A stretch of DNA of 61,736 nucleotides, the filler included. It is 14 parts of 14 records of this genome, joined end to end, with 100 filler letters (N's around TTAATTAATTAA, not from the genome) between each part and the next. Parts side by side here need not be neighbours in the genome. Positions count along the whole stretch, not along the records: positions 36,750 to 40,752 come from SRR15195285_5350; 13 more parts are not named here. One strand, 5' to 3'. Below are positions 3,905 to 61,207 of this stretch, in pieces (within the stretch, counting starts at the first letter, position 1; every line of letters begins with the position of its first letter). Under the pieces are notes generated by a model. It saw nothing but the letters and a program-made list of their open reading frames with translations. It had not been told where the DNA came from and did no database searches. The translations under genes and the position numbers were made by a program.

Positions 3905-4004
3905 NNNNNNNNNNNNNNNNNNNNNNNNNNNNNNNNNNNNNNNNNNNNTTAATTAATTAANNNNNNNNNNNNNNNNNNNNNNNNNNNNNNNNNNNNNNNN
4001 NNNN
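3905..4004. other. Artificial contig linker N44-TTAATTAATTAA-N44 (first of 13)
   Basis: Identical 100-nt six-frame-stop spacers at 3905, 7261, 10512, 14305, 19496, 22666, 29096, 32493, 36650, 40753, 44366, 51933 and 57249. Confidence 0.98.
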
Positions 4005-19495: not shown

Positions 19496-19784
19496 NNNNN
19501 NNNNNNNNNNNNNNNNNNNNNNNNNNNNNNNNNNNNNNNTTAATTAATTAANNNNNNNNNNNNNNNNNNNNNNNNNNNNNNNNNNNNNNNNNNNNGTGAG
19601 TCAATTTTCGAATTTCAACCTGGGTGCATTCGAAGACCGGATCGTTGCGCGGCGGGGGTCTGTGCGCGCGCGCGCGCGCGGCCCGGCGGCGGCGGCGCCA
19701 CCGGCAGCCGCGGCGCCAGCGATTGTTGGAACTGTTTGTGAAGTGCAGCTGCAGCTCCCGCGTGGCCTTCAAATCGTCATCGAT

Positions 19785-22452
19785 ATGACGTCGGCAAGAG
19801 ATGAAGGCCTGCTGCGGCGCCTTGGTGACGGGGAGTCCCTCTCGACAATCGCCCAGTCGCAGGGGTGGTCCATAGAACAGATGAAGGCGTGGTTTGTTCG
19901 AATCGCAGCCAGACGCGGTGCTCCCTTTCTGCAGGTGTTTGCTCCCTCGCGTGGTCGTGTTCCTACCGAGCATGACGTCCGCATAGAGAGAGATGAGCAA
20001 GGCTTGCCCCACATCATCGCAGAGACGGACAGTGACCTGTTTTACGGATTTGGTTGGGCAATGTCTGAGGACCGACTGTTCCAATTGGACTATCTGCGTC
20101 GCAAGGCGCTAGGGAAGCTGAGCGAAATCGTTGGATCACAAGAGCTCTGCGCGTCCATCCTCTCAGATAACCGGGCTCCGACGAGTGCGTTGGAGCTAGA
20201 CAGGCTTGCTCGGACCGTCGGATTCGGACGTATTGCCGTGGAGCAGTGGCCCAGCATGGAGCCAGCAGCTCAAGCTCTGCTGTCTAGCTTCTGCGATGGT
20301 GTCAACGGGCAACTGGCTGCAGCAATGAAAGAGCACTCGCTCCCAATCGAGTGCTCGATCTTAAACTACACACCAGACACATTTTCCCCGCAAGACATGC
20401 TGGCAATCGAGACCGATTTTCGTTGGTACCTGACTGGCCGGTTCAATGGCTTGCTGTTGCCCCAATTGGCTGCAGAGAAAATCGATGGCGAATTGTTGGA
20501 CGAGTGGTTGCTTGGTGAGGCTGATGAGGAGGCAATTCTCCCAGAAGGCGTGTATGAGCCACTGCCTTCTAAACTACTGCCAGACCCTGCTACATGGTTG
20601 AAGGCTGAGCCCGTGCGAGGGGCGGTTGGGTTTGACGCGGATTCGGCGGTTGGGTCGAACAACTGGGTCTGCAACGAGCAGCTCTCCTCATCAGGAGGCT
20701 GCATGGTGGGCTCCGATCCGCATGTGGGTTTTGAGGCAGTGTCGTGCTGGTACAACGTCGCGCTGGTAGGTGGGTCGTTTGACGTCGTTGGATGCGCGTA
20801 CGTTGGCGTACCTGCCGTTATGTTTGGCCGCAATAGGGATGTCGCTTGGGGGATTACCAACAACATATGCTCTCAGCGTGACCTGTTTTGGGAGACGGTG
20901 GATGAGCGAGGCAGATTTCTACACGACGGCGAGTGGGTCGAACCGACCGTGATCGACGAAATCATCTATGATAAAGACGGTACCGAGGCATTGGCGCTGC
21001 CCGTGGTCTTCTCGCGCCATGGACCGATCGTCAACCAGGTGCTGCCAACAGCAGCTGCTGAGCTCACCACACGTGTGCAGCAGCACCCTATCGCGTTAGA
21101 ATGGGTTGCCACACACGGAGATGGGTGGCTAGAGGCGATGCTCGCCATGAACTGTGCGACTTCAGTCGAAGAGTTTCGTGAATCACTCCGACCATGGCAT
21201 TGCCCCAGCTTCAACCTATCTGTTGCTGATACGCACGGGTCTATCGGAATGGTCAGCGTCGGCCGGCTACCACTCCGTAGTGGGATGTCGACGCGTGGTT
21301 TACGCGACGGTTCTTCTTCTGCCAACGATTGGTTTGGATTCGTCCCATATGATGCGATGCCTCATGCCATCAACCCAGGGTCTCGCAACTGGCTTGGTTC
21401 GGCCAACAACAGGCTAACCCCTGACAGCTACCCATACCCTCTCGGCGGGACATTTGCGTCTGGCTTTCGCGGCAAGCGAATTCGGCAGTTGTTCGAGGAG
21501 GCGGCAAGACGCGGTGGTGGCCTCACAGTGAATGATATGGCAATGATGCAGATGGATACGCTCTCACTGCCTGCCTGTGAAGACCTACCAGCGCTCCAGG
21601 CCTTACTACACGAAGAACCGTCATCAGACAGCACCGCAATGAGTGCTGCTCGAACTGCACTGCTCTCTTGGGACGGTGATGCCAAAGTCGACAGCAAAGG
21701 CACGCTCGTCTACCGGTTCTTCATGACCGCGTGGACGCTTGGTGTGGCATCGGCAAGGTTTGCGCCGGACACCGCGCCTCTGCTCGCAGTGGAACCGCTG
21801 GCCCGTCGTCTCCTTGTGGCAGACCCCAAGCAGTGGTTCGCTGATGAAGAAGAGCGTGTTCAAGGTATTCGCGCCGCCTTCAGCTCAGCCGTAGGGAGTA
21901 TTGTGGACTCCCTTGGCCCCGACCCAAGTTTTTGGAACTGGGGTCGCGTCCATGTGATGCCTTTGCGCCATGTACTAAGTACGCTTGGTGATGGGTCGAT
22001 TGCGGACCTGGTCAATGCAGACCCAAGACCGATAGGAGGCGATATGACGACTCTTGGAAACACAGGGCAGGGTGTGTTCCTTGCACCCTCTCGTCCGCAT
22101 ACCCCTACTTTTTGCCGCGTACCCACGTACACTTAGCTTGTCAATTATCTTACGTTGCCTTAATCTGCACGTAGGTCCGGGCTACATTGCTAATACTGGT
22201 GCTGGTTACCGACATGTCGCCGATCTGGGGTCGTCTCCAGCTGGTTTGTGGATGGTGGACGGGCAGTCGCAATCGGGTCAGCTATACACACGCCACTACA
22301 ACGACTCGATCGACATGTGGGAAGATGGTGGCTTGTGCTTCGTTCCCCTCGGCGGGTTCAAGGGCGTCACCACCACTGTTTTGCGGTCACAAGCAACGGC
22401 ACTGCCAACCGCTGGCGCCGCCCGGGTTGAACGGAACCGCACGAAGCTGTGA
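19785..22452 (+). CDS. Penicillin acylase family (peptidase S45) Ntn-hydrolase; exons 19785-22071 and 22175-22452
   Basis: IERDEQGLPHIIA, GFGWAMSEDRLFQLD, nucleophile motif GSNNWV, GSDPH, FGRNRDVAWGITN, SANN, WNWGRVH. Intron 22072-22174 continues into GAGYRHVADL...GQSQSG...HY. Start taken as the first in-frame ATG. Confidence 0.92.
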
Positions 22453-23220
22453 CCGCAGGAGCCGAGCCCAGACACGATGATGCAAAAAGGGTTCACAGTC
22501 AAAATAATGTTACACAAGACCCCTCGGCGATTGGCTCTATGAACGTTGGATCATCGAATGGGCCCATCTTGCTCACTGTAGAGGTTAGAGCCACTGTTAT
22601 AGCTTGTCGCTCACCGCGAGGTACATTACATAGGTTGTCGTCTACCGCCTAAACCACACTTCTGCNNNNNNNNNNNNNNNNNNNNNNNNNNNNNNNNNNN
22701 NNNNNNNNNTTAATTAATTAANNNNNNNNNNNNNNNNNNNNNNNNNNNNNNNNNNNNNNNNNNNNTGGTGGGTTGTTCCTGGCAGGGCGGAGGCGGGTCG
22801 GGAGAATGGGCACGCTGGCCTGCGTTCGGCACCGGTGAGGGAGGAGTCAACAGTTCACATAGACTGCACTGCTTGAGTGGATTAGGTCGGGTCAGGTGGT
22901 CTCTCTCGATTGATCTGCGATTTGTGAAACCTGTAAACTGCTGTGGATGCTGGACTCACTCGGGGCCTTGTTGCCGCAGAGGCTGACCTAGTCGTGGTAG
23001 TATGTAGGAGGAGCTTCCTCCGCTGCGAGCTCCGTACCCGTGAGTGTTGTCTCCGTCCGCGGTGGCTGGTGCAGCAGGCGTGTGTCCTTGCTGCGGGACT
23101 GGCAGCGTCTGACAGGAGGTGAGTGAGCGGCTTTCCGGAAAACAGGCAGGGTGGCACATCTGGGTTCGCTGTGTAGGCGCGCGGAGCTGCGTAGAGGCGG
23201 CGGCGAGTCTCAACGCGAGG

Positions 23221-26200
23221 ATGAGCGAAGCGGATGCAGCTCCGGCGCCGACGACGGACGTCGCTGCCACGAAGGCGAAGACGAAGGGCGCGCTGCTCGG
23301 CGGCCTGCGGAGCGGGGCGCTGGAGGCGGCCGTGACGAAGATGGAGGAAGACACGGCGGCAGAGGAGGAGGCCGCTGCAGATGGAGCGCCTGCAACGCCG
23401 AAGAAGAAGAGCGCGCTGATGGAGCTCAGTGAGGAGGAGGAGGAAGAAGAGGAGATGGAGGGCGGGTGGGAGCCGCCGCCCACCTCGCTTTGGTGCTGCA
23501 CCGTCAACACTCCGCCGCGCAAGCGCAGCCTCAGCGCCATGCAGCACCCAGCGTTCGATGGCATCGTACTGCTGTGTATCGTGCTCAACTCGGTCGCGAT
23601 GGCCCTGGAGGACCCACTAGAAGATCCAGACAAACCGAGCGAGCTGACAAAGTCCCTGCACATGTTTGAGATGGTGTTCAACATCATCTTCACGATCGAA
23701 ATGGTGACCAAAATCATAGCGATGGGCTTCTGCACCAACAAGGGCACGTACCTGCGTTCTGGATGGAATGTCATGGACTTCATCATTGTCGTGACCTCGT
23801 GGCTGCCGTACATCCCCGGCGTGGGGTCCTTAGTCAACGCAAGCGGCCTGCGCTCCTTTCGACTGCTGCGACCGTTGCGATCGATCAGCCGGTTCCCCGG
23901 ACTAAAGGTGCTGGTCGAGACGATCCTGTCGGCAATTCCGCAGCTCGGGAACATCTTGCTACTGACGTCGATATACTTCATCACGTTCGGGATTGTCGGC
24001 GTGCAACTGTGGCGTGGCGCTTTCCATCACCGCTGTGGTTCCGTGGCGTTAGACGGCGAATACGTGGAGGCGGCAGAGGGATGGGATCACCACTCCAGGG
24101 CACGCCATGGCTACGAGCACCGCGACAGTGCAGTGCATGAGTGGAGCGACGGCCTGATGTGCAACTCCACGGTCCCTGTGATGGACCTCCCAGACGAATG
24201 CTTCCACATTGATTTGACCGATGAACGCCTGAACGGCGTCGGTGATGCTGGGTTTTGCAGAATGGACGTTGAGCTGATAAGAGCTGCCACGCCCGAAGTG
24301 CGCAAGCAGCTCCACATGGAGAGCGGATGTGATCCGGAAAGTGAGCGATGCATCATCTGCGAGATCAACCCGTACTGGGGTCTGATCAGCTTCGATAACA
24401 TCTTTTTCGCTTTCGTGATCATTTACCAGATCGTTACGATAACATCATGGCAGGAGTACATGTACTTTACACAAGACACCGGTGGCTTTTCCTGCTGGAT
24501 CTACTATGTCCTCTGCACGTTGATCGGTGCATATTTTCTCTTCAACCTGTTTGTCGCTGTTCTGAAAGAGAAGTTCGACGCGATCGCGGACGCGGAGGAG
24601 GATGATTCTCGATCCGATTCTGACGACGACGGGGAGGAAGAGATGCCAGAAGTGATAGTCGAATTTCTGGAAGCTCGGACTTACCGGTTGCAGTGCCCGC
24701 TGGAGGACATGCATGCACCGGAGACTTCTAAGGATTTGAAAACACGCCTTTCGCAGGACAAATACTTCGAAGACCACGTCACACATTTGACGCAGCGGGA
24801 TCGTGCAAATCCACTTGTGAACCCCGAAGACCCATGCGACCGAGTGCTGTGTTTCAAGGGCCACCCGATCGACGACGAGATGTCGCTGGTGGAAGCCGGC
24901 GTGGCTCCCGGTGACATGCTCCGCCTTGAGACTAGCGCTGTGCGACTGAATCTGAAGCTCCTGGTGCAGCACCCCGCTTTCATGAACTTTTTCACGGCAC
25001 TGATCATAGTCAACACCATCGTGCTGGCGTCTGAACGCTATCAAATGTCCGATGCGGAGATCGACTTTTTGGCGAGCGTCAACTACTTCTTGACGTTATC
25101 TTTCACATTTGAGGTGATGTTCAAACTCTTAGCATACACGCCGGGGGAGTTCGGTGGAGACACTTTTAACGTCTTCGACTTTTTCGTCGTCGCCGCTGGC
25201 TTGCTGGAGCTGCTGTCTGCAGACGACTCAGGCAGTGCGGCAGGCGCGTTCCGAGCGTTCCGTATCTTCCGATTGTTCCGCGTTCTTCGGGTCTTGCGGT
25301 TGATCAGCTTCTTGAAGCCACTCAAGAAGATTGGCCGAGTGGTTATGCGAACTCTCGGCCATCTCGGGTATATCATGGCATTGGTGCTGCTGTTCACGTA
25401 CATATTCACCATTTTGGGAATGCAGGCCTTCGGCGGCAAACTCGAGTTCGATGGCGAGGTGCCGCGGACGAATTTCAACAGCTTCTTGGACTCAATGTTC
25501 ACCGTTACACAGGTCCTAACGTTTGACGCGTGGAATGCGCCGCTATTTGACGCCGTGCGGGCGTACGGATGGGTGGCATCTGCGTATTTCTTCGTGTGGA
25601 TTTTGCTGGGAGCGTTCGTGCTGCTGAACTTATTGCTTGTTATCATTCTTGATTCGTACGTAGAAGTCGCGGAAGAAATGAAGGAAGAAGAAAAGCGCGC
25701 TTTGATCGGGCGTGGAGACGCTGTGAATCCAGGGGAAGCTACTGAAGAAAAGGCAGCCCCGACAGTCAGTGAAGATGTCCAGGATACGTTCTCAAATCCG
25801 ATGGCTGCCCACATGGGCGAAGACGACATTCGTGCGATCATTCAGGAAGTGGCAGAGGGCGAAGAATTCATGGACAGAGACCACGTAAAACAAGCCGCGA
25901 CCAGGTTAGGCATTGACCCTACCGATGACAAACTGCAAGCAATGCTTCTGGACGGTCCTGCGAGTACGAAAATCAATGTCGATGGCTTTGTTGACTGGGC
26001 GCTCTTGGAGATGCGCAAGCGACGTGGGCGAATGCGCAGCGACATGGAGGCAGTGGCTCAAGCTGGAATCGACCAGCTGGGCAACCTGTCTTCTCCTCGC
26101 ACACCAAGATCGCCAAAGGAGTGGAGCGAAGTCGACATTGCAGCTATCGACAACAAGTCTTGCGGCATCTTTGGGATGGACAACCCGTTGCGCAAAAAAT

Positions 26201-29047
26201 GCTTCACTTTGTCCCTCAGCAAAAAGATGGACCGTACCATATTGTTCGTCATTGTGCTGAACTGCTTCTGCATGGCTCTGGACAGTCCGTACGTGCAGCC
26301 AGGTTCCTCTCGTGCAATCTTCCTGAAGTGGATGGATATTTTCTTTACATTCATATTCGTTGGAGAAATGTTGATCAAAATCATCGCCACAGGGTTCCTT
26401 TGGAACGGGGAGCCCTCTTATCTACGCGATAGTTGGAATCGGCTAGATTTCATTATCGTTGTCATATCCTGTGTTGACTTCACTTTGACATACATTCTCG
26501 CAGTTGATGGCGACATCGGCATCATGAAGGTGTTCCGTGGTGTTCGTTGCGTTCGTCCTCTACGGATGCTCACGAAACTGCGCGGCCTACAGATGTTGGT
26601 CAACTCGCTCCTGGCCAGTATCACGTCCCTCGCGAACGTCTTCCTGATGACAATGATCGTCTGGTTGATTTTCGGTATCTTGGGCATCAACCTATTCTGC
26701 GGTCAATTTTGGCACTGCACAGACGGCGCCGCGTACGGCATTGAGGACTGCGTCGGTCCGTTCTTGAACGAGGATACTTTAGAGATCGAACAGCGGCGAT
26801 GGATCAATCAGGCGTCGAACTTTGACAACATTGGAGAGAGCATGTTTGCATTGTACGAGATCATGACCCTCGACGAATGGATCATGGTCGCCTACAATGG
26901 AATTGACGCGGTCGGCGTTGGGAAGCAACCCCAGTACAACTACCAGAAACTTATGGTGTTGTACTTCATCACCTTCCTTGTGGTCTGTAACTTTCTGTTC
27001 CTCAATTTGTTCATTGGCGTCATCTACGAAGAGTATGTTGCGCTCAAAACCGCTGGCTTACGGGGCCTGAAGCCTGGGCAAAAGGCTTGGTATAATGTGC
27101 AGATGGCAGTCAGCAACGCGAAGCCAACTGTGAGGGCCGTGTTAGCCAAGGGAGCCGCAACGGGTGGGTTCAAAGAAAAGGTGTACACATTGGTCACCAG
27201 CGCGCATTTCGACCACGCCATCATGTTGACTATTCTGGCAAACTGCATTGTCATGTCTATGTCGTACTACCAGGAGCCGGAGTGGTACACAGCACTGTGC
27301 GATGTACTCAACTACCTGTTTACATTCATCTTCACAGTGGAAATGTGCCTGAAGATTTACGCACTGAGCTTCGCGGGGTACTGGCTGGAACCGTGGAACC
27401 GTTTTGATTTCGTAATTGTGATGCTGTGTCTGGTGGACATTATTGTGTCAGATATCCTGCAACTCCAAAGCTTCTCGTCATCGGTCTTCCGTCTTTTCAG
27501 GATCGGGCGTGTCCTGGGACGAGTCGCGCGGATGTTCCGCGTAATCAAGGAGGTGCAGTCACTCAACCAGATCTTCCAAACTCTGGTCGAGTCGCTACCA
27601 GCCCTGTTCTACATGGGTATACTTGTGGTGCTGATCATTTTCATTTTTTCGATTCTTGGTATGCATCTCTTCGGCCGGCTGAAGTATGGGGACGTGATTG
27701 GACCCAACGCAAACTTCGAGTCGTAAGCTCGCATTCGAACATCCGTGTTGTTTCACCAGATGGCTGCTAAAAAATTCGGCGTTTTGCTGCGCATGCAACG
27801 CAGGGTTCCTGTCGGTATGTTGACACTGTTCGGATTTGCGACCGGGGACGCTGTGACACCACTTACTCACGACTGTATGGTTCAACCACCCGACTGCGAC
27901 CCTGGTGCGTGCTTCCAACACTCCGCGTCAGAATTTACACACTTTCTCTTACCTGCTCAGCGTGTGTCGTGCGCTAGACTACGACAACTATGGCAACAAG
28001 GTTGCGGGTGGCAACTGTGGCGACCCGTTAGCAGCTCAGCTTTTCTTTGTCTTCTACGCGCTGGTGATGCTATTTATTGTCATCGAGATGTTCGTCAATG
28101 TCATTATGGAAAAGTTCGAGGAGCAGGCGGAGCTGTCCCACCTGCCCATCACAACCAACGACATTATGGACTTCGCGGATGTCTGGTCAAGATTTGATCC
28201 GAAGGCGCACGGCCGCATCCCGGTAGAGCTAATGGCCATCCCACCGGATGATCCTCGGCTCGAGAAGACGCAGGACAATCTCGAAGGAGTAGTTGTGTAC
28301 CCTGGTGGGGAGCAAAAGTTCAAGAAGGGCTTTCTGGAGGAGCTGTCCGAACGCGTGCCGCTGCTCGGGGCCAACCCAGAATTCGAGGAGGAGCTATCTG
28401 AGAAGGTGAGTCCGCCAGGCGTTCGTCTGCTGCCCAACCACCGCTGCTGCGCACATTGCAGGATGTCGGACGCACCGCGCCTAGTGCTGAGTAGCTTCTT
28501 TTGGTTGGCCCAGTTGGGGACGAAGAAGCTGGAGTGTCCGGGTCCGACTCCTGAGGACAGACAGAATTGGTTGAAGGGGCTGCGCGTCCCGGCAGGCAGG
28601 AGCAGGACGGACAGACGCTACCTGAAGCCCTCACATATTGAGACGGCCAAGTCCATGGAGAGAGCTGACGATTACTTCACCTTCCATGAGGTGTTGTATG
28701 CGCTGTGCGAGAGGCGAGCGGGCCGGTCGATGCCGCCTGCTAATGAGGAGATCGATAATATACGGGTGCGTGCCGCCGCTGCTGCCGCCTCCACCGCCGT
28801 CGTCTCTGCGCAGCGCTCCACACGCCGTTGATGAATGGTGTATCCACAGCCCGTCACCATTACCGACGCGTGCACTAACCATTGCTACCGCACGTTTGTG
28901 CCGCAGATCAAGTTGAGTCTGATGATGCCAACGCTGCGGTTGGAGACGATCGACGAGATCACGAAGGACCAGAAGCGGCAGAAGGCTGAGAAGCGGGCCG
29001 CAATATTCGGGGCGATGCAGGGCGCCGCAGCTGGCAAGGACAGTTAA
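23221..29047 (+). CDS. Four-domain voltage-gated cation channel alpha subunit (Nav/Cav superfamily); exons 23221-27722, 27804-27904, 27978-28405, 28514-28765, 28907-29047
   Basis: Four S1-S6 repeats with Arg-rich S4 (LRSFRLLRPLRS; FRAFRIFRLFRVLRVLRL; FRGVRCVRPLRML; FRLFRIGRVLGRVARMFRV), YLR.xWN.xDF motifs, four P-loops and a C-terminal EF-hand-like WSRFDP. Four GT-AG introns restore the frame; a likely 5'-UTR intron lies at 23119-23176. Confidence 0.95.
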
Positions 29048-36485: not shown

Positions 36486-36749
36486 ATGCACACTCTCACA
36501 GACAGACAGACAGACAGACAGGTAGGGGAGACAAACACGCAGCGGAGGCAGATACACACGCACACACACACACGCGCAGAGAGACAGGCACACAGACGGA
36601 CGGACGGACAGACAGACAGGCTGTGCTGTGCTGTGCTGTGCTGTGCTGTNNNNNNNNNNNNNNNNNNNNNNNNNNNNNNNNNNNNNNNNNNNNTTAATTA
36701 ATTAANNNNNNNNNNNNNNNNNNNNNNNNNNNNNNNNNNNNNNNNNNNN

Positions 36750-39700
36750 GGAAGAGCAGGAGCCCGCGGAGGAGGAGGACGAGGAAGAGGGAGAGCACGC
36801 GGTGGTCGAGGACGAGGGCGAGCAGGAGAAGGCAGAGGATCAGAAGGAGGAAGAGTAGGAGCTCTAGCCTCACTGCCGGCTCGGATTGAGCACCCACCGG
36901 GCCCGGGCTGGGAGACCTATCGCCGCAAAGCCGCGGAAGCCCGCGGCCGCAACGAGGAACGGCACATCACCGCCGGACCGCGTGTAGGTGGACGGACCGT
37001 CGGGCTGCTGAGAGACCGTGCAGTGGACAAGCACGTGATCTTCTGCATCGACAACTCGCGGAGCATGCGAGCAAAGGACGCGGTGTCGGACGGCGGTGCA
37101 GCGCTGCGCCGTTGCGACGCTGTGTTCTCGTGCGTTCAGCGGATGGCACAGGAACACGTCATAGTTTCGCAGTCCATGACGCTGCGGTATTCGGTCATCT
37201 TGTTCGAGGCAAAATTGCACGACATCGTGATTGGCCTTCCTCTGCACAAGTTGGCGCCGGCTATCGCCAACATGCGGAAGATTTCACCTGTCGGAGGCAC
37301 GAATTACTCGTGTGGATGGGATGCTGTTCGAATTGCTTGCGAGCTGGTGAAAGCCGATCAGCATGAAGTTCTATTTCTATCTGATGGCTGCCCAGACGAC
37401 AACGATCTGGGGACGCTCGGTGCACACGAGGACACAGAAATTGATGATGTTACGTGCACAGCAAGGTGGGAGTGCACTATTCGACATTTGGCCTCGCAGT
37501 ATCGCGAAGACCTTACCGTGCATGCGATTGCCATTGGCTCGGAGAACAGCGCGTACCTAGAAAGGGTTGCCAAGCTTGTCGATATGTATGGACGTGTCGC
37601 GGACCCAACCGCTGGCGAAGTCATATTTGGACGACTCCTGGACATCCCGTTTCTCGAACGCTTGGCGAAACTTGTTACTGGAGCAGTGCGCAGTGACCCA
37701 GGCGTGGTATTCAGCTCGTCAGGAGAGCGTGCGGTGGGAAGGTATCACAGAATTAATCGCATGGATTGTGCTGCCGGTGGCTACTCAACATCAAATGACA
37801 AGAATTTGGAAGGGCTTTTCCCGGCTGATGTCAAGACGGAACGTAGCGAGCGAGTCGACGACTTTACTGAAATGGCCGCCGTCCTTGCGCTGAGTGCTCC
37901 TCTAAGGGAGAAGGTCCTAAGGGAAGGGCAAGCAAAATTGGAAGCATTTAGGGCCTGGCACTCTCATGTACAGGAGATAGTAGAGGCTAAAGAGGAGGCC
38001 AGACGAGAAAGGAAGCGGGCCAAGCGGGCTGCAGAAGAAGCTGCGCGGGAAGCCGCACGGGTGAGACAGGAAAGACTGGACGCAGAGGCAGCTGCGCGGG
38101 TGCCGCAAATTATCCAGACCATCAAAGAAAATGTGAAGGATCGTCAGAAGCCGGCAGTAGCAGTACAGAGATCAGGAGTTGTGAAGGAAGACCCGTGCTC
38201 GTGGGACGAGTTGCTGCCGAAGCTAGCAGATGCTCAAAAGAAACGGGAGTCGAAGAAGCGCCAAAAGGAGGCGAGGCAACGCCAGCGAGATCTGAGGAGT
38301 GTGCTCAAGGTGGGCGGTGTCACCAAGAGTGATGTTAGCGACGGTGCAACCAAAAGCGATTCTGATGTAGCGCCAAAGGCTCACAGAAAGACGGTGAGTT
38401 TCGCAGCTGTTATCGACGATATAGACCCAGAGCCGGAGCCGGATCCGGAGCCGGAGCTGGATTCAGATTTGTCTGATGCATCAGATGGAGCAACAAAGCA
38501 GTCAACAAGCCTCTCAGATACATTCTCGATCATCAGTAGTTCCATCAGCAGTGGAGGCAAACGCAGCAGAGAACCAAAGTTTCAGGAAACGGCGTACCTT
38601 GAAGACTCAGTAGACTGGGAGAAGCATGCCAACTCAGAGAAAGCGTTCCGCCTGAAAGAGACCAATCGCGGCGGATGGAGCACCGGCACCTATGAGGAAA
38701 CGGTAAAGTTCTGTGACAAGCCCTTCGCCAAGGGTGGTCAGCGGAATGCGTTTCACATAACACTTCCCAGAGATACAAAGCACAGGTACGCAACTACTAA
38801 GGAAGGCAAACACGCTGCACACCATGTTGCAAAGGAGAGCCGCTGGAAGGGTGGAGACTTGCACCAGTGGAAGTCTGACTACACTAGTGAGAAGAAAGCA
38901 ACGAATCTCGCGACGAGCTTGGTCAGAAAGTTCACTAGAGAAGTCCTGGCGGCATCAGAGGTCTTCGCTCGGCAGAAAAATCTGCGGATCACCGGCGCGC
39001 CCCCGCAACCTTCTATTCTACAGTTTGAGCTCTATGGCATCAAAGTGAAGGGCTCTGAGGACCGAGTTGTTTGTGTCGAACGGTATTTGGAAGGCGAGTG
39101 GCAGAAGCGCAACGGGAACAACGGATATGTCCACAAAGAGTCGGCGGAGACGCTGACCTGGGAGGGGCTGATGCCCCACGCGTTCTCACACTGGACATAT
39201 GAGGACTCCCTCAAGACCAAGAGCCAAGAGGGAGATGTTGTGTGCTTAGTGTGCGACATTCAAGGGGTTGGCACGGACTGGACCGACGTGGCGATATGCA
39301 CGGAGGACCGACGTTTCGGCAGCACCGATTTGGGTGAGGTCGGCATACAGAACTTTTTCCGCACGCATCGCTGCAACTCGTTGTGCAAGCTGCTGGACCT
39401 GACCTATATCAAAGGCCCGGCTCGTGGCGACGAGAATGACCTCTCTGCCTCCATCATAACGGCCACAAGCGCGATAGAGATCATCAAGACCCGGCACCTC
39501 AACGAGCGCAAGGAAGAACGCGACATCGACACGCTTGAGTTGCAGAAGGCGTACAAGCACGGAACCAAAGAGCCAGGCCATTATCCTGGGACAGTGAAGC
39601 ACACTCACGATGGGGTTGTTCTTGTGACCAGTGTAGGAGATAGCACTGGTATTCTAAAGGCCAACCCTGCTGGCGTCACTGCATATCGTCGTGCTGGCAT

Positions 39701-40121
39701 CGAGGTCAAGAGAACGCACAAACTCTCTGGGGCACAGCTCCAGGCCCAAAATGCAGAGCGCATCGAGAAGAAGAAGGAGAAGGCGCTAGAAACGCTTCCG
39801 TGTGGGAGGAAGATCTCGAAGAAAGTCTTCGCGATGACGCCGAAGCAGTTGAAAAAGGAGCTGAAAAAGTATCAGATCAAATGGCCTGGGCGTGGCGGTG
39901 TGGACGAGAGAGCGTGGGCTGTGCCTGGTGCGTCCGATGTCGGCATGTTGCACTCGGTTCGAATGGAGTTGCTTTCTGGGCTGGCTGAGGCCATGGAGAA
40001 ACAGAAGCGCGCTGAGCAGGATAGAATCGCGGAGGTGGAACGTGAGCGGCAGGAGGTCCAGAGGAAAGCTGAGGCATGGAGGATTTCCACACGAGAACCT
40101 TACTCATCTGAGGATGAATAG
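36750..40121 (+). CDS. vWA domain + alpha-kinase (eEF2K/MHCK family) multidomain protein, 5'-partial, no visible introns
   Basis: Frame is open from the contig start (GRAGARGGGGRGRGRARGGRGRG). MIDAS motifs IDNSRSM, GGTNY, LFLSDG; alpha-kinase motifs PFAKGGQRNAF, VAK, ERYLEGEWQKRNGNNG, AFSHWTY, CDIQGV, TD, FGSTDLG..GI..FF..H.CN.LC. Confidence 0.9.
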   Translation, partial: GRAGARGGGGRGRGRARGGRGRGRAGEGRGSEGGRVGALASLPARIEHPPGPGWETYRRKAAEARGRNEERHITAGPRVGGRTVGLLRDRAVDKHVIFCIDNSRSMRAKDAVSDGGAALRRCDAVFSCVQRMAQEHVIVSQSMTLRYSVILFEAKLHDIVIGLPLHKLAPAIANMRKISPVGGTNYSCGWDAVRIACELVKADQHEVLFLSDGCPDDNDLGTLGAHEDTEIDDVTCTARWECTIRHLASQYREDLTVHAIAIGSENSAYLERVAKLVDMYGRVADPTAGEVIFGRLLDIPFLERLAKLVTGAVRSDPGVVFSSSGERAVGRYHRINRMDCAAGGYSTSNDKNLEGLFPADVKTERSERVDDFTEMAAVLALSAPLREKVLREGQAKLEAFRAWHSHVQEIVEAKEEARRERKRAKRAAEEAAREAARVRQERLDAEAAARVPQIIQTIKENVKDRQKPAVAVQRSGVVKEDPCSWDELLPKLADAQKKRESKKRQKEARQRQRDLRSVLKVGGVTKSDVSDGATKSDSDVAPKAHRKTVSFAAVIDDIDPEPEPDPEPELDSDLSDASDGATKQSTSLSDTFSIISSSISSGGKRSREPKFQETAYLEDSVDWEKHANSEKAFRLKETNRGGWSTGTYEETVKFCDKPFAKGGQRNAFHITLPRDTKHRYATTKEGKHAAHHVAKESRWKGGDLHQWKSDYTSEKKATNLATSLVRKFTREVLAASEVFARQKNLRITGAPPQPSILQFELYGIKVKGSEDRVVCVERYLEGEWQKRNGNNGYVHKESAETLTWEGLMPHAFSHWTYEDSLKTKSQEGDVVCLVCDIQGVGTDWTDVAICTEDRRFGSTDLGEVGIQNFFRTHRCNSLCKLLDLTYIKGPARGDENDLSASIITATSAIEIIKTRHLNERKEERDIDTLELQKAYKHGTKEPGHYPGTVKHTHDGVVLVTSVGDSTGILKANPAGVTAYRRAGIEVKRTHKLSGAQLQAQNAERIEKKKEKALETLPCGRKISKKVFAMTPKQLKKELKKYQIKWPGRGGVDERAWAVPGASDVGMLHSVRMELLSGLAEAMEKQKRAEQDRIAEVERERQEVQRKAEAWRISTREPYSSEDE

Positions 40122-40954
40122 CTATGCAGCGCCAAACTTCTTCGAGGAAGAGGAATTCGTATCAGTGTCATATCCCGAGTGATGTTTGCAGTGGTGTCAA
40201 CGTGGCTGCCTGTGGGAACGGCAGGAACTGAATACATGAGAAGGGTTTCCTTTCTTCATTATAGAGCTCCAAGACCATGTGGTAGGAGTAAAGCCTGTTA
40301 CCATCAGTCCACATGCGCGCGCCTCTCTGTTTTTTTGCCAACTAGCCAAGCTTGGCATACACACCTGCCAAATGACATTTGCTGCCCGCGAACAGTTCCT
40401 CGCATATGCCGTCTGTGCAATGTCTTGCAAAGTCCTTCCTGTGATTAGCTATGATACTACGTTTGTGTGCCACCTCTTCCGCCCACTGCGCAAAGAGTGG
40501 AGACATCAACTTCTGGTACATCTCGTCTGGGAGTAAATCTGAACTAGATCTATTAGGAATTCCTAGGCCGCCAAACAGGAATCCGCACTGAGCCCTCTCA
40601 CCTCTCAGTCTCATCAAATGCATTTGAGCAAATCATGCCATACGTTCATGGGGAACATGATGCTTGATTCATTGATGGGGAAATGTGCATTGGATTGAAT
40701 CGACAACGACATGTATTCGAATACCAAAAACACTAGTGTCCCTGCCTCAGCANNNNNNNNNNNNNNNNNNNNNNNNNNNNNNNNNNNNNNNNNNNNTTAA
40801 TTAATTAANNNNNNNNNNNNNNNNNNNNNNNNNNNNNNNNNNNNNNNNNNNNGCCAATCCGCCGCGCAGAACGCGTGCCCGTCCTGCGGCCCGATCGCCG
40901 GCGGCCCCGGCGCCATCACCACCGGGTGGTGCAAGCCAAGGGAATGAAAAGGCT

Positions 40955-57499: not shown

Positions 57500-60400
57500 A
57501 TGCAGCGGCCTGGCGTGGCTGCGCCGGCTGCCTGGGGGCATGGGCAGGCGGACACGTCTGTGCAGCCCGGCACGTCGGCGGCGATGGGTCAGCACCAGGC
57601 CGGCGCGCCAGTGAGCGACGCGCAGCTGGCCACACTGCGGGAGCAGCTGCAGCAGTACGGCAGCATCATGCACAACCACGCGCAGCATGTAATGCAGCAG
57701 CCGGTACCTCCGCCGGATCCGCGCTACCGCTGCGAGGAGCTGTCACTCAGCGAGCTCAAGCTGGAGCGGGAGCGAATCAGCCGCAGCCACCGCGAGGCGG
57801 GTCTGCAGCTGCTGCTGGCGGACCCGGATCCCTCCGTGCAGACACAGATCAGGATCAAGCAGCTGCAGCTGCTCCCGCTGCAGCACCAGGTGCGCAACGA
57901 GCTGCGGACGATTTTTGAGGGCAACCACGGCCCGGATGCCATAAGGCAGTGGTTCGAGGGCAAGAAGCGGTTCCAGAGCGAGGTGGAGCGGGCGCTGAAG
58001 CGGGCGGCCAGGGCTCGGGCCGATGAGATCAAGCGACACACGAAGATTACCCGCGGCTTCTTTGACGACATGTTCAAGCACGGTGACCGGATGAGGGAGC
58101 TGGTGAAGAAGTCCAGGCAGAGTGTGCGCCGTGACAGAACAAAGGCAGAGAAGTGGCACAACGACAAGATCCGAGATGACAAGAAGCACGAGGAGAAGCG
58201 GCGCCGGGAGCGTATCCAGGCGCTGCGTGATAACGACGAGGAGAAGTACCTGGCGCTGCTGAAGAGCGAGAAGAACGAGCGCTTGAATCACTTGATGAAA
58301 GAGACTGAGGCTCACCTGCAGCTTCTCACGGAGAAAATGCAGATGACAGCTCCGGAAGGTCCGCAGGCGAACGGCGAGGGGCGTGATGGCCAGCCCCGCA
58401 CGGCGGGCCAGCGATTTCACCAAGCCGCGCACGCCGCGAAGGAGGATATCACTGAGCAGCCGTCAATCCTCGTCGGCGGTGACCTGAAAAGCTACCAGAT
58501 CGAGGGCCTGAACTGGACAGTGTCGCTCTTCAACAACGGGCTCAATGGGATTCTGGCCGACGAGATGGGCCTCGGGAAGACGATTCAGACTATTGCCCTT
58601 ATAACGCACTTGATAGAGCGCAAGGACAATCCAGGCCCATACCTCATCGTCGTGCCCTTATCTGTACTGCCGAATTGGCGGCTGGAGTTGGAGAAGTGGG
58701 CACCATCTGTCAAGCTTGTGGTGTTCAAGGGACCGGACGCAACGCGCAAGCGGATCTTCAAGGAAGAGATGGCAGATTTCCAGTTCAATGTGGTGCTGAC
58801 TACGTATGAGTACATCATGAAGGGCAAAGCGCACCTCGGAAAATTTCTGTGGCAGTACATCATCATTGACGAGGGGCATAGGATCAAGAACGCGGAGAGC
58901 AAACTGGCAGTCATGCTGGGGCACAAGTACAAATCGAAAAATCGGCTGCTGCTGACGGGAACGCCGCTCCAGAACAACTTGTCCGAGCTATGGGCACTGC
59001 TGAACTTTCTGCTCCCGCAAGTGTTCAACTCTTCCGCGAGCTTCGAGGCGTGGTTCAATGAGCCGATGAGGGAGCTGAGTGCTACGGGCGGCAGCGAAGA
59101 AGAGTCCGCACTCAACGAAGAGGAGAAACTGATTATTGTGAACCGGCTGCATGCCATCCTCAAGCCATTCATGCTGCGAAGAATGAAGAAGGACGTCGAG
59201 TCCCAGCTGCCGCAAAAGTCCGAGATGGTGTTGAAAGTAGAGCTCTCAGGGTGGCAGAAGCTTATCTACAAGCAGCTGAAGTCTGAGGGGCTGCGCAGCG
59301 TGGATTCCGAAGGGAGGGCGGTCAACAAGCAAATGCATAACCTGATGATGCAGCTTCGCAAAGCATGCAACCATCCGTATTTGTTCTGGAGCGACTTTAA
59401 CTTGAACTTCCCAAACGAAGCCCTCTATCGCGCGTCGGGGAAATTCGAGATGTTGGACCGTATGCTGCCCAAGCTTCACAAGACCGGGCACAAGGTGCTG
59501 ATCTTTACGCAAATGACGAAGATCCTAGATTTGATGGAGGAGTTTCTGACCTGGCGCCACTGGAAATATTTGCGTTTGGACGGAACGACAAGATCGGAGG
59601 AACGTGGCCAGGTCGTCGACCAGTTCATGGACAAGGACGCAGGCAACTGGATATTTCTGCTTACGACTCGTGCAGGTGGCGTGGGCTTGAATCTCCAAGT
59701 GGCCGACACCGTGATCATTTTTGATAGTGATTGGAATCCTCAGATGGACATGCAAGCAATGGACCGCGCACACCGTATTGGGCAGCAGTCCGAGGTGCGT
59801 GTTTTCCGCATGATCACGAATACACAAATCGAGGAGGACATCTTTAGCCGTGCTAAGGCCAAAAAGAATGTAAACGAGATAGTCGTTCGCGAAACAAACG
59901 AGGACGAGACGGATCGCCAGGCTCGGCTGAGGAAGCTTCTCGAAGAAGAAAAACAGGGAGGGTCAGACGACGAAGAGTCCGAGGAGTCAGGCGCAATGTC
60001 GTGGGATGAATGTAATACCATGCTAGCTCGCTCCGAAGAGGAGCTCGCTCTCTTCGAGAAGATGGACAAGGAATTCTTAGAACGAGATGAAGCCGAATGG
60101 AAGGCTCGTCAGAACGATGACCCAAAGCCCTGGCCGGGAAGGTTAATGTGTGATTCAGAGCTGCCGGCCTGGATGCTGAGCGGTGGGGGTAATGCGGACA
60201 CATCTGGTGGTGGTACCAGCGACACCGCAGCAGACCCTGCAGCAGTGCAAGAGAATCTTGGCCCGAGAAAGCGCGAGCGGGTGAGCTATAAACCGGTTTC
60301 TGACCAGGAATTCAACCGCATGCTTTTGGACAAAAGTGGGACAGGAAGTGGTGGCGGAAAGAAGAAGGCCAAGTCTGGCAAGAAGGAGGTAGACCCTCAG

Positions 60401-61207
60401 ATGAAGGAACAACTGCTTGGCATCTGGACGGCCGTCTCGGAAACTTCCAAGACAGGGCTCTTTGACAAGCTGCCTACGAAAAAAGAGTGCGTCTCATTTC
60501 GCTGGCGTGCTCCTCTATGCTCAGCGATTGTGACCTGCATCCGCATTCAGCCCGCACTCAGTTCTCGGCGACCTCTGCCTTGCATTAAACTGGTGGCGTT
60601 GCACCACGCAGCTTACCTGACTATTTTCAGATTATCGCACAGCCGATCTCCCTCAAGGAAATCAAACGTAAAATCAACAACGGGGAGCTGAACACGGTTG
60701 AATCCGCCAAGGAGAAGATTGACCTGATGTTCGCAAACGCTCGACAATATAACATGGAAGGCTCCGACATTTTGCAGGACGTTGATGCGATGGAGGTGAG
60801 TGCAGCGGCGTTCGTTAGTCTACATCAGTCCCATCGTTCTTGCTCCTACTTGCGTTTTCCACTGGGCACCTGAGCAGCCCACGTGTGTGACTTTGCAGGC
60901 AGCAATGATGCAACACCTCGTCGCGCTCGGGGCGAAGCAGCCCAGGAACAAGTCGTCGCAACAAGTACCGCTCGCAACGGACAACCGAGTAGAACCATGG
61001 AACCAGCCGGCGGCCGAAGTTGGCCACGGTGGTGACGCGATGTCGCAGTATGCCGACGATACTGCTGGATTGTTCAACGACGATGTAGATGGAGAGGGTG
61101 GTCATACCTATGGAAATGATATGGCAGACGATTACTCCAACCCATATGGCATAGGTGATGAAAGCTCGGCGGGGCGGTCGAAATTGGTGTTAAAGCGCAA
61201 ACGTTAG
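57500..61207 (+). CDS. SNF2: SWI/SNF ATPase of the Snf2/Brahma (SMARCA2/4) subfamily; exons 57500-60486, 60612-60795, 60899-61207
   Basis: QLQ-like and HSA regions, GILADEMGLGKTIQ, DEGH, LLTGTPLQN, TRAGGVGLNLQ, QAMDRAHRIGQ. Two introns reveal a bromodomain (LPTKK|DLPDYFQIIAQPISL...NARQYN). Confidence 0.95.

Follow-up and report, generated by a model that had tools for sequence, protein, structure and literature searches.

In the Dictyostelium kinase VwkA, one polypeptide bears a vWA domain at its N-terminus and an alpha-kinase after it, while RNase L and IRE1 join a kinase or pseudokinase to a KEN-domain ribonuclease (RNase), giving regulated RNA cleavage. Here we describe a gene at positions 36750-40121 (+) of a 61,736-nucleotide stretch of DNA (the window) whose predicted product resembles each of these proteins in part. 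In order, the protein appears to comprise a vWA domain with a metal-ion-dependent adhesion site (MIDAS), a charged linker, a complete alpha-kinase, a module of ~80 residues resembling the DUF4258/Ntox49 toxins, and a lineage-specific helical tail; we regard these domain identities and this architecture as highly probable. The vWA and alpha-kinase follow one another as in VwkA, and we know of no C-terminal BECR-like module in that protein. The likeness to RNase L and IRE1 is one of logic only, in that sensor, kinase-type and C-terminal RNase-type modules are present in one protein; the parts themselves are unrelated, with an alpha-kinase and a BECR fold here in place of a eukaryotic protein-kinase fold and KEN. 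A Pfam search of the whole protein at E ≤ 1 returned only VWA_2 and Alpha_kinase, with no KEN domain, and the C-terminal module is predicted to be of alpha/beta type.

A recent preprint assigns DUF4258 (overlapping Ntox49) to a colicin-like group of BECR domains with the organization 'pre-alpha + alpha-beta1-4', whose active-site residues come from the pre-alpha helix and beta4 and whose characterized members cut mostly transfer RNAs (bioRxiv 10.64898/2026.08.28.747851). The module described here shares with the DUF4258/Ntox49 toxins an H-x3-R-x3-R helix, a C-terminal [IV]T-x-aromatic strand and a predicted topology of two helices and four strands; it differs in having a shorter stretch from the helices to the last strand, and in not clearly retaining the second His of the bacterial proteins. 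Whereas those toxins are accompanied by an antitoxin or immunity gene or are delivered by secretion, the module is here found inside a large eukaryotic signalling protein. The contig is only 4 kb long, so that no immunity partner can be proposed. Identity to the BECR RNases of solved structure, namely CdiA-CT (E. coli NC101), colicin E5, colicin D, RelE and BrnT, is only 6-18%.

The module lies at 39444-39704 (+) and occurs as a single copy in the window; the 70-residue unit that the initial annotation had singled out as a putative RNase domain is found within it, from 39486 onward. Its assignment as a DUF4258/Ntox49-like, colicin-like BECR-fold domain is based on homologues, profile comparison and a predicted fold. 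With the last 239 residues of the protein as query, a phmmer search of 1.84 billion representative sequences at E ≤ 0.001 found 53 proteins, of which 52 align to query residues ~15-98 (DNA ~39444-39695) and one to the tail only. Pfam identifies Alpha_kinase in 23 of the 52 relatives, always N-terminal of the unit and separated from it by ~10-55 residues, and six of the 52 (P0010, P0014, P0019, P0028, P0036 and P0053) additionally carry VWA_2 at the N-terminus. The search for the same domain order elsewhere, proposed as a check on the initial annotation, has thus located vWA, alpha-kinase and unit in six distant relatives. Other partners of the unit are RRM_1 (P0024), zf-MYND (P0019, P0040) and, following the unit, zf_Tbcl (P0005, P0017). 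Judged from these homologous sequences, the unit is a genuine, mobile domain. Many of the short matches in which it seems to stand alone begin inside the kinase, and are probably truncated gene calls. The named sources of the domain are Picozoa sp. SAG31 (P0014) and Rhodomonas salina (P0204), and the others are metagenome proteins.

A set of 61 non-redundant members reveals the residues held constant in the family. His18, Arg22 and Arg26, which form the H-x3-R-x3-R motif, and Gly40 are invariant in 61/61; position 38 is Lys or Arg in all 61, Thr79 is present in 58/61, and position 81 is aromatic in 55/61. In the window the invariant residues are encoded at 39495-39497 (His), 39507-39509 and 39519-39521 (both Arg, in the first helix with the His) and 39561-39563 (Gly), and those of the last strand at 39678-39680 (the near-invariant Thr) and 39684-39686 (the aromatic residue). 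The concern that homologues might lack the His and Arg residues is therefore not borne out, with the His and two Arg present in every member.

Of 25 aligned members of the family, 19 match PF14076 (DUF4258) at E ≤ 1, with a best value of 1.3e-4 (22.6 bits), and 8 of the 52 relatives do so at E ≤ 0.01; the sole other Pfam family to match more than one of the 25 is Alpha_kinase (7 members), some rows of the alignment containing kinase fragments. For comparison, we assembled 29 bacterial domains scoring above the PF14076 cut-off, from one phylum in which 66 of 301 genomes had a match; the set is without L015 (an unpublished genome) and L022 (a stop codon inside the match). Profile-profile alignment of the family with these bacterial DUF4258 domains gave Prob 87% and E 4.1e-6 over 28 columns. 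When 64 family sequences were used, hhalign returned Prob 90.9% and a score of 36.3, compared with 0.2% for the reversed template and no more than 1.5% (score ≤ 14.8) for 30 column shuffles. His18, Arg22 and Arg26 of the family pair with H4, R8 and R12 of the bacterial consensus, and a global alignment, of low confidence in the sheet region, pairs the C-terminal ITAY with IITVY. The family also contains the His and the Lys/Arg of the Ntox49 signature, given as 'H, [KR]' by Zhang et al. (2012) (PMC3482391), where Ntox49 is also placed in stramenopiles and Viridiplantae.

Structure prediction was carried out as the initial annotation had advised, and gave a BECR-type fold with toxin neighbours. 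AlphaFold with the 25-sequence alignment produced a model with a predicted local distance difference test score (pLDDT) of 74.6 and a predicted template modelling score (pTM) of 0.62, and the predicted secondary structure consists of helices at 17-26 and 30-39 and strands at 41-44, 50-55, 58-63 and 76-82. This predicted model, with its modest scores, has the alpha helix, the four-stranded antiparallel sheet and the extra pre-alpha helix of a BECR domain. Foldseek places only RelE-type, YafQ or CdiA-CT toxins in its top 11 rows, headed by RelE1 (E 0.07, prob 0.99, TM 0.60); all rows lie above E 0.001. RelE-type relatives cleave ribosome-bound messenger RNA. Almost all structural neighbours are RelE, ParE, colicin or CdiA toxins, and a second independent search gave the same fold class.

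Other sequence searches were set aside. Used as a profile against Protein Data Bank sequences, the family alignment found only a de novo TIM-barrel design at the level of chance (E 0.099), and no sequence-level match to any solved chain. A word-indexed protein search with the same alignment, the reach of which is limited by the word index, gave 14 matches, none of them annotated PF14076. A tblastn search of plasmids with P0024 and P0038 yielded only RRM matches or chance rows (E ≥ 2) and no DUF4258 sequences, and NCBIfam and PADLOC scans showed nothing consistent for the domain. One further candidate, phrog_5393 (PHROGs, function unknown), matches 8 of the 25 members and the window at E 0.12; it matches only 1 of the 29 true DUF4258 domains at E ≤ 0.001, and we gave it no weight.

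We propose, with considerable confidence, to place the unit in the DUF4258/Ntox49 group as a divergent branch found in eukaryotes, while noting that it is not a member by the Pfam threshold. The resemblance to DUF4258 and the BECR fold suggested at the outset stands at the level of the family, through the profile match, the predicted fold and the invariant His and Arg. The points that weigh against our assignment are these: the 87-residue domain of the window has no Pfam match at E ≤ 1; all family matches to PF14076 lie under the 25-bit cut-off; the confident part of the profile match covers the two helices only (28-36 columns); and the second His that is invariant in the bacterial domains (H54 of their consensus) is paired with Gly57 in the low-confidence global alignment, the nearby family position 53 being His in 41/61 and Tyr in 15/61. 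The sub-threshold PF14076 scores and the empty Protein Data Bank profile search would also suit an explanation in which the unit is a small alpha/beta extension specific to one lineage of the alpha-kinase subfamily, its BECR likeness having arisen by convergence. Such convergence would have to account for 19 of 25 members pointing to one and the same Pfam family, for a profile-profile score far above those of the shuffled and reversed controls, for the identical H-x3-R-x3-R spacing and the C-terminal [IV]T-x-aromatic in common with true DUF4258, and for the agreement of two independent structure searches on the fold class; we consider it improbable. The main rival to our reading accepts the fold and denies the activity: the module would be catalytically inert and would target or regulate the alpha-kinase by docking to RNA, ribosome or protein, for instance carrying it to translation factors, leaving the kinase as the sole enzymatic output. 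Its position ~10-55 residues after the kinase in all 23 kinase-bearing relatives fits this explanation, as do the unclear retention of the second bacterial His, the presence among the structural neighbours of ParE-type proteins, which are not RNases, and the fact that activity has been demonstrated for no DUF4258 protein (PMC11980606); the last two also count against the RNase assignment itself. However, H-x3-R-x3-R is invariant (61/61) at the place of the active sites of colicin-like BECR domains, and the module also occurs without the kinase, alongside RRM, zf-MYND and other domains, which argues that it is more than a kinase appendage. We think inert docking rather unlikely, and retain the BECR-fold assignment with a candidate nuclease activity.

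By analogy with its family, the BECR-like module has an even or slightly better chance of being an RNA endonuclease. In its active site, the first helix would contribute the face bearing His-x3-Arg-x3-Arg, and the last strand its Thr and aromatic residue; the substrate would most likely be transfer RNA or ribosome-bound RNA, as for the nearest structural relatives. The RRM and zinc-finger fusions in relatives fit an RNA-directed role of the module. More speculatively, the vWA domain may bind a ligand or partner protein through its MIDAS site, the alpha-kinase may gate the nuclease or work in parallel with it, and the output may be translation arrest in stress or conflict, for example in viral infection; a gated kinase-nuclease mechanism of this kind is tentative and on balance doubtful. 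As a whole, the account comprising the gene, its architecture, the putative RNase and the speculative gating is the best explanation we can offer, and we judge it somewhat more probable than its negation. The widest form of the proposal is unlikely, and we mention it as a conjecture: that marine protists, namely Picozoa, a cryptophyte and numerous uncultured lineages, possess a family of self-contained effectors of immunity or stress in which a domesticated nuclease of bacterial toxin type, directed at transfer or messenger RNA, is gated by a vWA sensor together with an alpha-kinase; such a protein would shut off translation upon ligand binding or infection and would be an independently evolved functional analogue of RNase L/IRE1.

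The integrity of the gene as a single open reading frame (ORF) bears on all of these proposals. The frame is free of stops from 36750 to the stop codon at 40119-40121 (+), and is open back to the contig start, in agreement with the single ORF claimed in the initial annotation; the ORF listing gives 37023-40121 (1032 amino acids). An independent metagenome contig, L001, contains the same ORF at 92% identity, and two cluster members (P0198 and P0200) also have it uninterrupted. The public gene models of the cluster (P0198, P0200 and P0202) start at the GTG at 37023, which has the appearance of a start picked by a prokaryote-style gene caller and is no evidence for where the protein truly begins. 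Comparison with L001 gave a ratio of non-synonymous to synonymous substitution rates (dN/dS) of 0.31 for the whole ORF. By region, the values are 1.58 for the leader (36859-37025), 0.53 for vWA, 0.39 for the linker, 0.14 for the kinase, 0.07 for the 70-residue unit (8 synonymous and 2 non-synonymous differences) and 0.21 for the C-terminal tail. The kinase and the BECR-like module are under strong purifying selection.

Parts of the gene are matched by contigs of two metatranscriptome libraries, in which DNA carry-over is possible; other parts have no RNA-library contig, which counts neither for nor against the gene. One RNA-library contig (run X14, record 14) covers 39304-39670 with zero differences and so bridges the kinase and the unit, which speaks against the prospect, raised beforehand, that this segment is spliced out or belongs to a separate gene. 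One DNA run contained a single 'skip' joint between 38452 and 39765, with one side of 20 letters; it falls at the PEPEPD repeat and was judged a repeat artefact.

Two adjacent genes, or a chimeric assembly, could in principle have been read as one ORF, and the highly fragmented assembly with its unsettled 5' end gives some ground for such an artefact. We find it exceedingly improbable: the uninterrupted ORF recurs in L001, P0198 and P0200, the fusion is kept in relatives of less than 50% identity, the junction is covered by DNA contigs as well as by the RNA-library contig, and dS is similar from domain to domain. With the single ORF retained, the question that bears on its N-terminus is how far upstream the protein extends. 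The initial annotation placed an RG/RGG-rich, RNA-binding segment at 36750-36860, and its architecture would be right in full if this stretch were translated and the start lay upstream of the contig end. Several observations favour that possibility. In the window and in L001 alike, no stop codon interrupts the frame before the end of the contig; between 36750 and 37060 the window contains no ATG in any of the frames, and hence none ahead of the MIDAS motif; of the five substitutions that distinguish the two sequences in this stretch, three leave the RGG-frame amino acid unchanged (in an alignment read by eye); and both indels (15 and 9 nucleotides) are multiples of three. The stretch itself, at 36750-36858 (+), is a purine-rich, GAG-type low-complexity sequence that begins at the first base of the contig and reads RG/RGG in the ORF frame and acidic in the +1 frame (EEQEPAEEEDEEE...KEEE, ending at TAG 36856-36858), and composition alone keeps purine repeats open in several frames. 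Codon statistics prefer the acidic frame by more than 50 bits in the window, with log-likelihoods of -20.5 bits (RGG) and +34.9 bits (acidic), and the L001 counterpart gives -16.5 versus +32.1. The GC content at third codon positions is 0.17 in the RGG frame and 0.83 in the +1 frame, compared with 0.64 in the long ORFs of the window, and GGA, AGA and CGA are strongly over-used: GGA encodes 12 of 17 Gly residues (17% in the long ORFs) and AGA plus CGA 9 of 11 Arg residues (23%). An RGG leader is present in none of the six vWA-bearing homologues that have an N-terminal region (P0010, P0014, P0019, P0028, P0036 and P0053). L001 also offers an in-frame ATG downstream of the stretch (L001:132), in a segment of ~40 nucleotides that is missing from the window; this ATG directly follows the stretch, overlaps the stop of the acidic frame (ATGA) and would place ~70 leader residues ahead of the vWA domain. 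Considering the adjoining assembly gap, the codons, the missing ATG and the homologues, translation of the RG/RGG region is quite unlikely, and we do not carry this part of the initial annotation forward; the stretch is probably a wrong-frame reading beside an assembly gap and not part of the protein, and it lies outside our proposed mechanism.

Downstream of this stretch, an in-frame leader at 36859-37025 (+) precedes the vWA domain; read in the ORF frame, it has a log-likelihood of +6.4 bits. A DNA contig of run X2 reaches 475 nucleotides upstream of 36750. A short intron linking the acidic frame to the ORF frame was considered and set aside, the sole GT..AG pairs near 36855-36890 bounding intervals of 13 or 36 nucleotides (judged by eye). 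In L001:1-134 the acidic frame has a TAG at 28-30, where a variant RNA-library contig has TTG; the acidic stretch may belong to the end of a gene lying upstream, form an upstream ORF of its own, or be non-coding.

The alpha-kinase catalytic domain is complete, as previously claimed, and lies at 38727-39386 (+), where its assignment is based on Pfam and on motif alignment. Alpha_kinase (PF02816) matches residues 660-879 over model positions 1-185 of 185, with E 4.2e-37 and 128.5 bits against a cut-off of 21.3. The motifs along the domain are KPFAKGGQRNAFH at 38718-38756, VAK within 38820-38840, PHAFSHW at 39174-39194, CDIQGV at 39252-39269, WTD at 39279-39296, GSTDLGEVG at 39318-39344 and THRCNSLC at 39363-39386. 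A phmmer search aligns the kinase with the solved structures of myosin heavy chain kinase A (2.3e-15), TRPM7 kinase and eEF2 kinase, with E-values ranging from 2e-15 to 1e-13, and CDIQGV, WTD, GSTDLGEVG, PHAFSHW and THRCNSLC correspond to VDIQGV, YTD, GLGNLGKAG, PQAFSHF and THKCNAVC of 5dyj/3lkm. From myosin heavy chain kinase A and TRPM7 we take the D-x-Q-G to be catalytic, the downstream Asp to bind metal, the glycine-rich segment to form a loop, and the His and Cys residues to bind zinc. These catalytic, glycine-rich and zinc-binding motifs are thus shared with all three kinases, the flanks of which are different, being WD40, ion channel, calmodulin-binding and SEL1-like regions; to our knowledge, none of the three has been reported with a BECR module.

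The vWA domain was assigned to 37026-37640 (+) from Pfam VWA_2 and MIDAS-type residues, its end at 37640 being an estimate. VWA_2 (PF13519) matches residues 96-213 of the translation from 36750 (DNA 37035-37388) with E 8.9e-6 and 26.7 bits, 0.3 below the cut-off of 27, and the relatives P0010 (E 7.4e-8) and P0053 (E 1.2e-7) pass this cut-off. The residues of an intact MIDAS, as reported initially, are all found: DNSRS at 37050-37064, the Thr of GGTNY at 37293-37307 and the Asp of LSDG at 37377-37388, together a predicted metal site. The D-x-S-x-S motif is also present in P0010, P0014, P0019, P0028, P0036 and P0053. Between the vWA domain and the kinase, a charged linker at 37896-38576 (+), defined from its translation, is K/E/R-rich and helical at 37896-38108 and then Ser-rich and acidic with low complexity; a Pfam scan of the whole protein gives no family for it. 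It includes a microsatellite encoding PEPEPDPEPE (38424-38462). The GAGCC/GGAGCC repeat coding PEPEPDPEPE, at 38358-38491, attracts contigs to depths of 12,000-56,000 in all four runs examined, and this very high depth of unrelated contigs indicates a generic low-complexity repeat.

The region following the BECR-like module, 39705-40121 (+), is a helical, partly coiled-coil tail ending at the stop codon, as described by a single-sequence fold and close relatives only. AlphaFold with the single sequence of the last 239 residues predicts a long helix with a poor pLDDT of 59.9, and this model was not used for fold searches. The one homologue of the tail found by phmmer is P0003, from the close cluster. 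The initial annotation had pointed to a short helical motif here as possibly SAP/HeH-like. The motif, MTPKQLKKELKKYQI, is present at 39834 and is helical in the low-confidence model, but the SAP/HeH reading has no Pfam match: no such family appears at E ≤ 10 over 39402-40118, although the HMMER filters may drop a very divergent motif. The C-terminal Pfam rows that did appear (LcrG, DUF4085 and DUF4337) are at chance level, and a search against the Protein Data Bank returned only a ribosomal S12 row, also at the level of chance (E 0.45), and no solved relative.

The combination of vWA, alpha-kinase and BECR-like module is recurring and apparently undescribed, its individual parts all being of known kinds. 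A literature search found no description of an alpha-kinase joined to BECR, DUF4258 or Ntox49, and the term 'alpha-kinase' is absent from the first 300,000 characters of Zhang et al. (2012) (PMC3482391), the supplementary files of which may list such architectures. Because the module falls under the Pfam threshold, public annotation would probably miss it. If the module is an active RNase, the family would show eukaryotes repeatedly employing a bacterial toxin domain within a kinase signalling protein, and would provide a candidate effector of translation shut-off in abundant uncultured marine protists and a first handle on DUF4258 function.

In some relatives the surroundings of the domain differ from those in the window. 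In P0005, P0017 and P0204 (Rhodomonas salina, a cryptophyte) a zf_Tbcl treble-clef zinc finger after the domain replaces the helical tail. P0033 (829 amino acids) has the end of an alpha-kinase, the BECR-like domain and ~700 more residues, and bears in one source the label 'Meckel syndrome type 1 protein', while P0051 (173 amino acids) has the domain and then the start of a vWA; in both cases gene callers may have fused adjacent genes, or the copies may be in tandem.

The window strings together short contigs, with N44-TTAATTAATTAA-N44 spacers between them at 15 sites (for example at 3905-4004, 36650-36749 and 40753-40852), so that gene adjacency across a spacer is no evidence of linkage. The gene of interest lies on the contig at 36750-40752, the preceding spacer ending at 36749. 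Microsatellites (TGC, CAC, GCTGT, CACCAG and TCCGGC repeats) are found at many contig ends in the window. The other contigs carry long, intron-free ORFs for typical eukaryotic proteins, among them a myosin head, a four-repeat ion channel, NF-YB and SNF2. As the SNF2 protein (57500-60691) is 89% identical to a EukProt protein of Picozoa sp. COSAG02, the source of the gene is, on this sequence evidence, probably a marine picoeukaryote, either a picozoan or a close relative. Elsewhere in the window, an 846-residue ORF at 19596-22136 (+), on a eukaryote-like contig, has a full Penicil_amidase match (E 8.5e-147); its single relative from prokaryote genomes, in a metagenome-assembled genome of Anaerolineae, is just 25% identical, and the ORF may be an old transfer or a member of a eukaryotic family. 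The four-repeat voltage-gated cation channel is encoded at 23119-27726 (+) (Ion_trans x4, E 4e-203); after it, at 27905-28831 (+), a separate ORF gives a weak GPHH/IQ-associated match, and the two may belong to a single gene interrupted by a frameshift or an intron.

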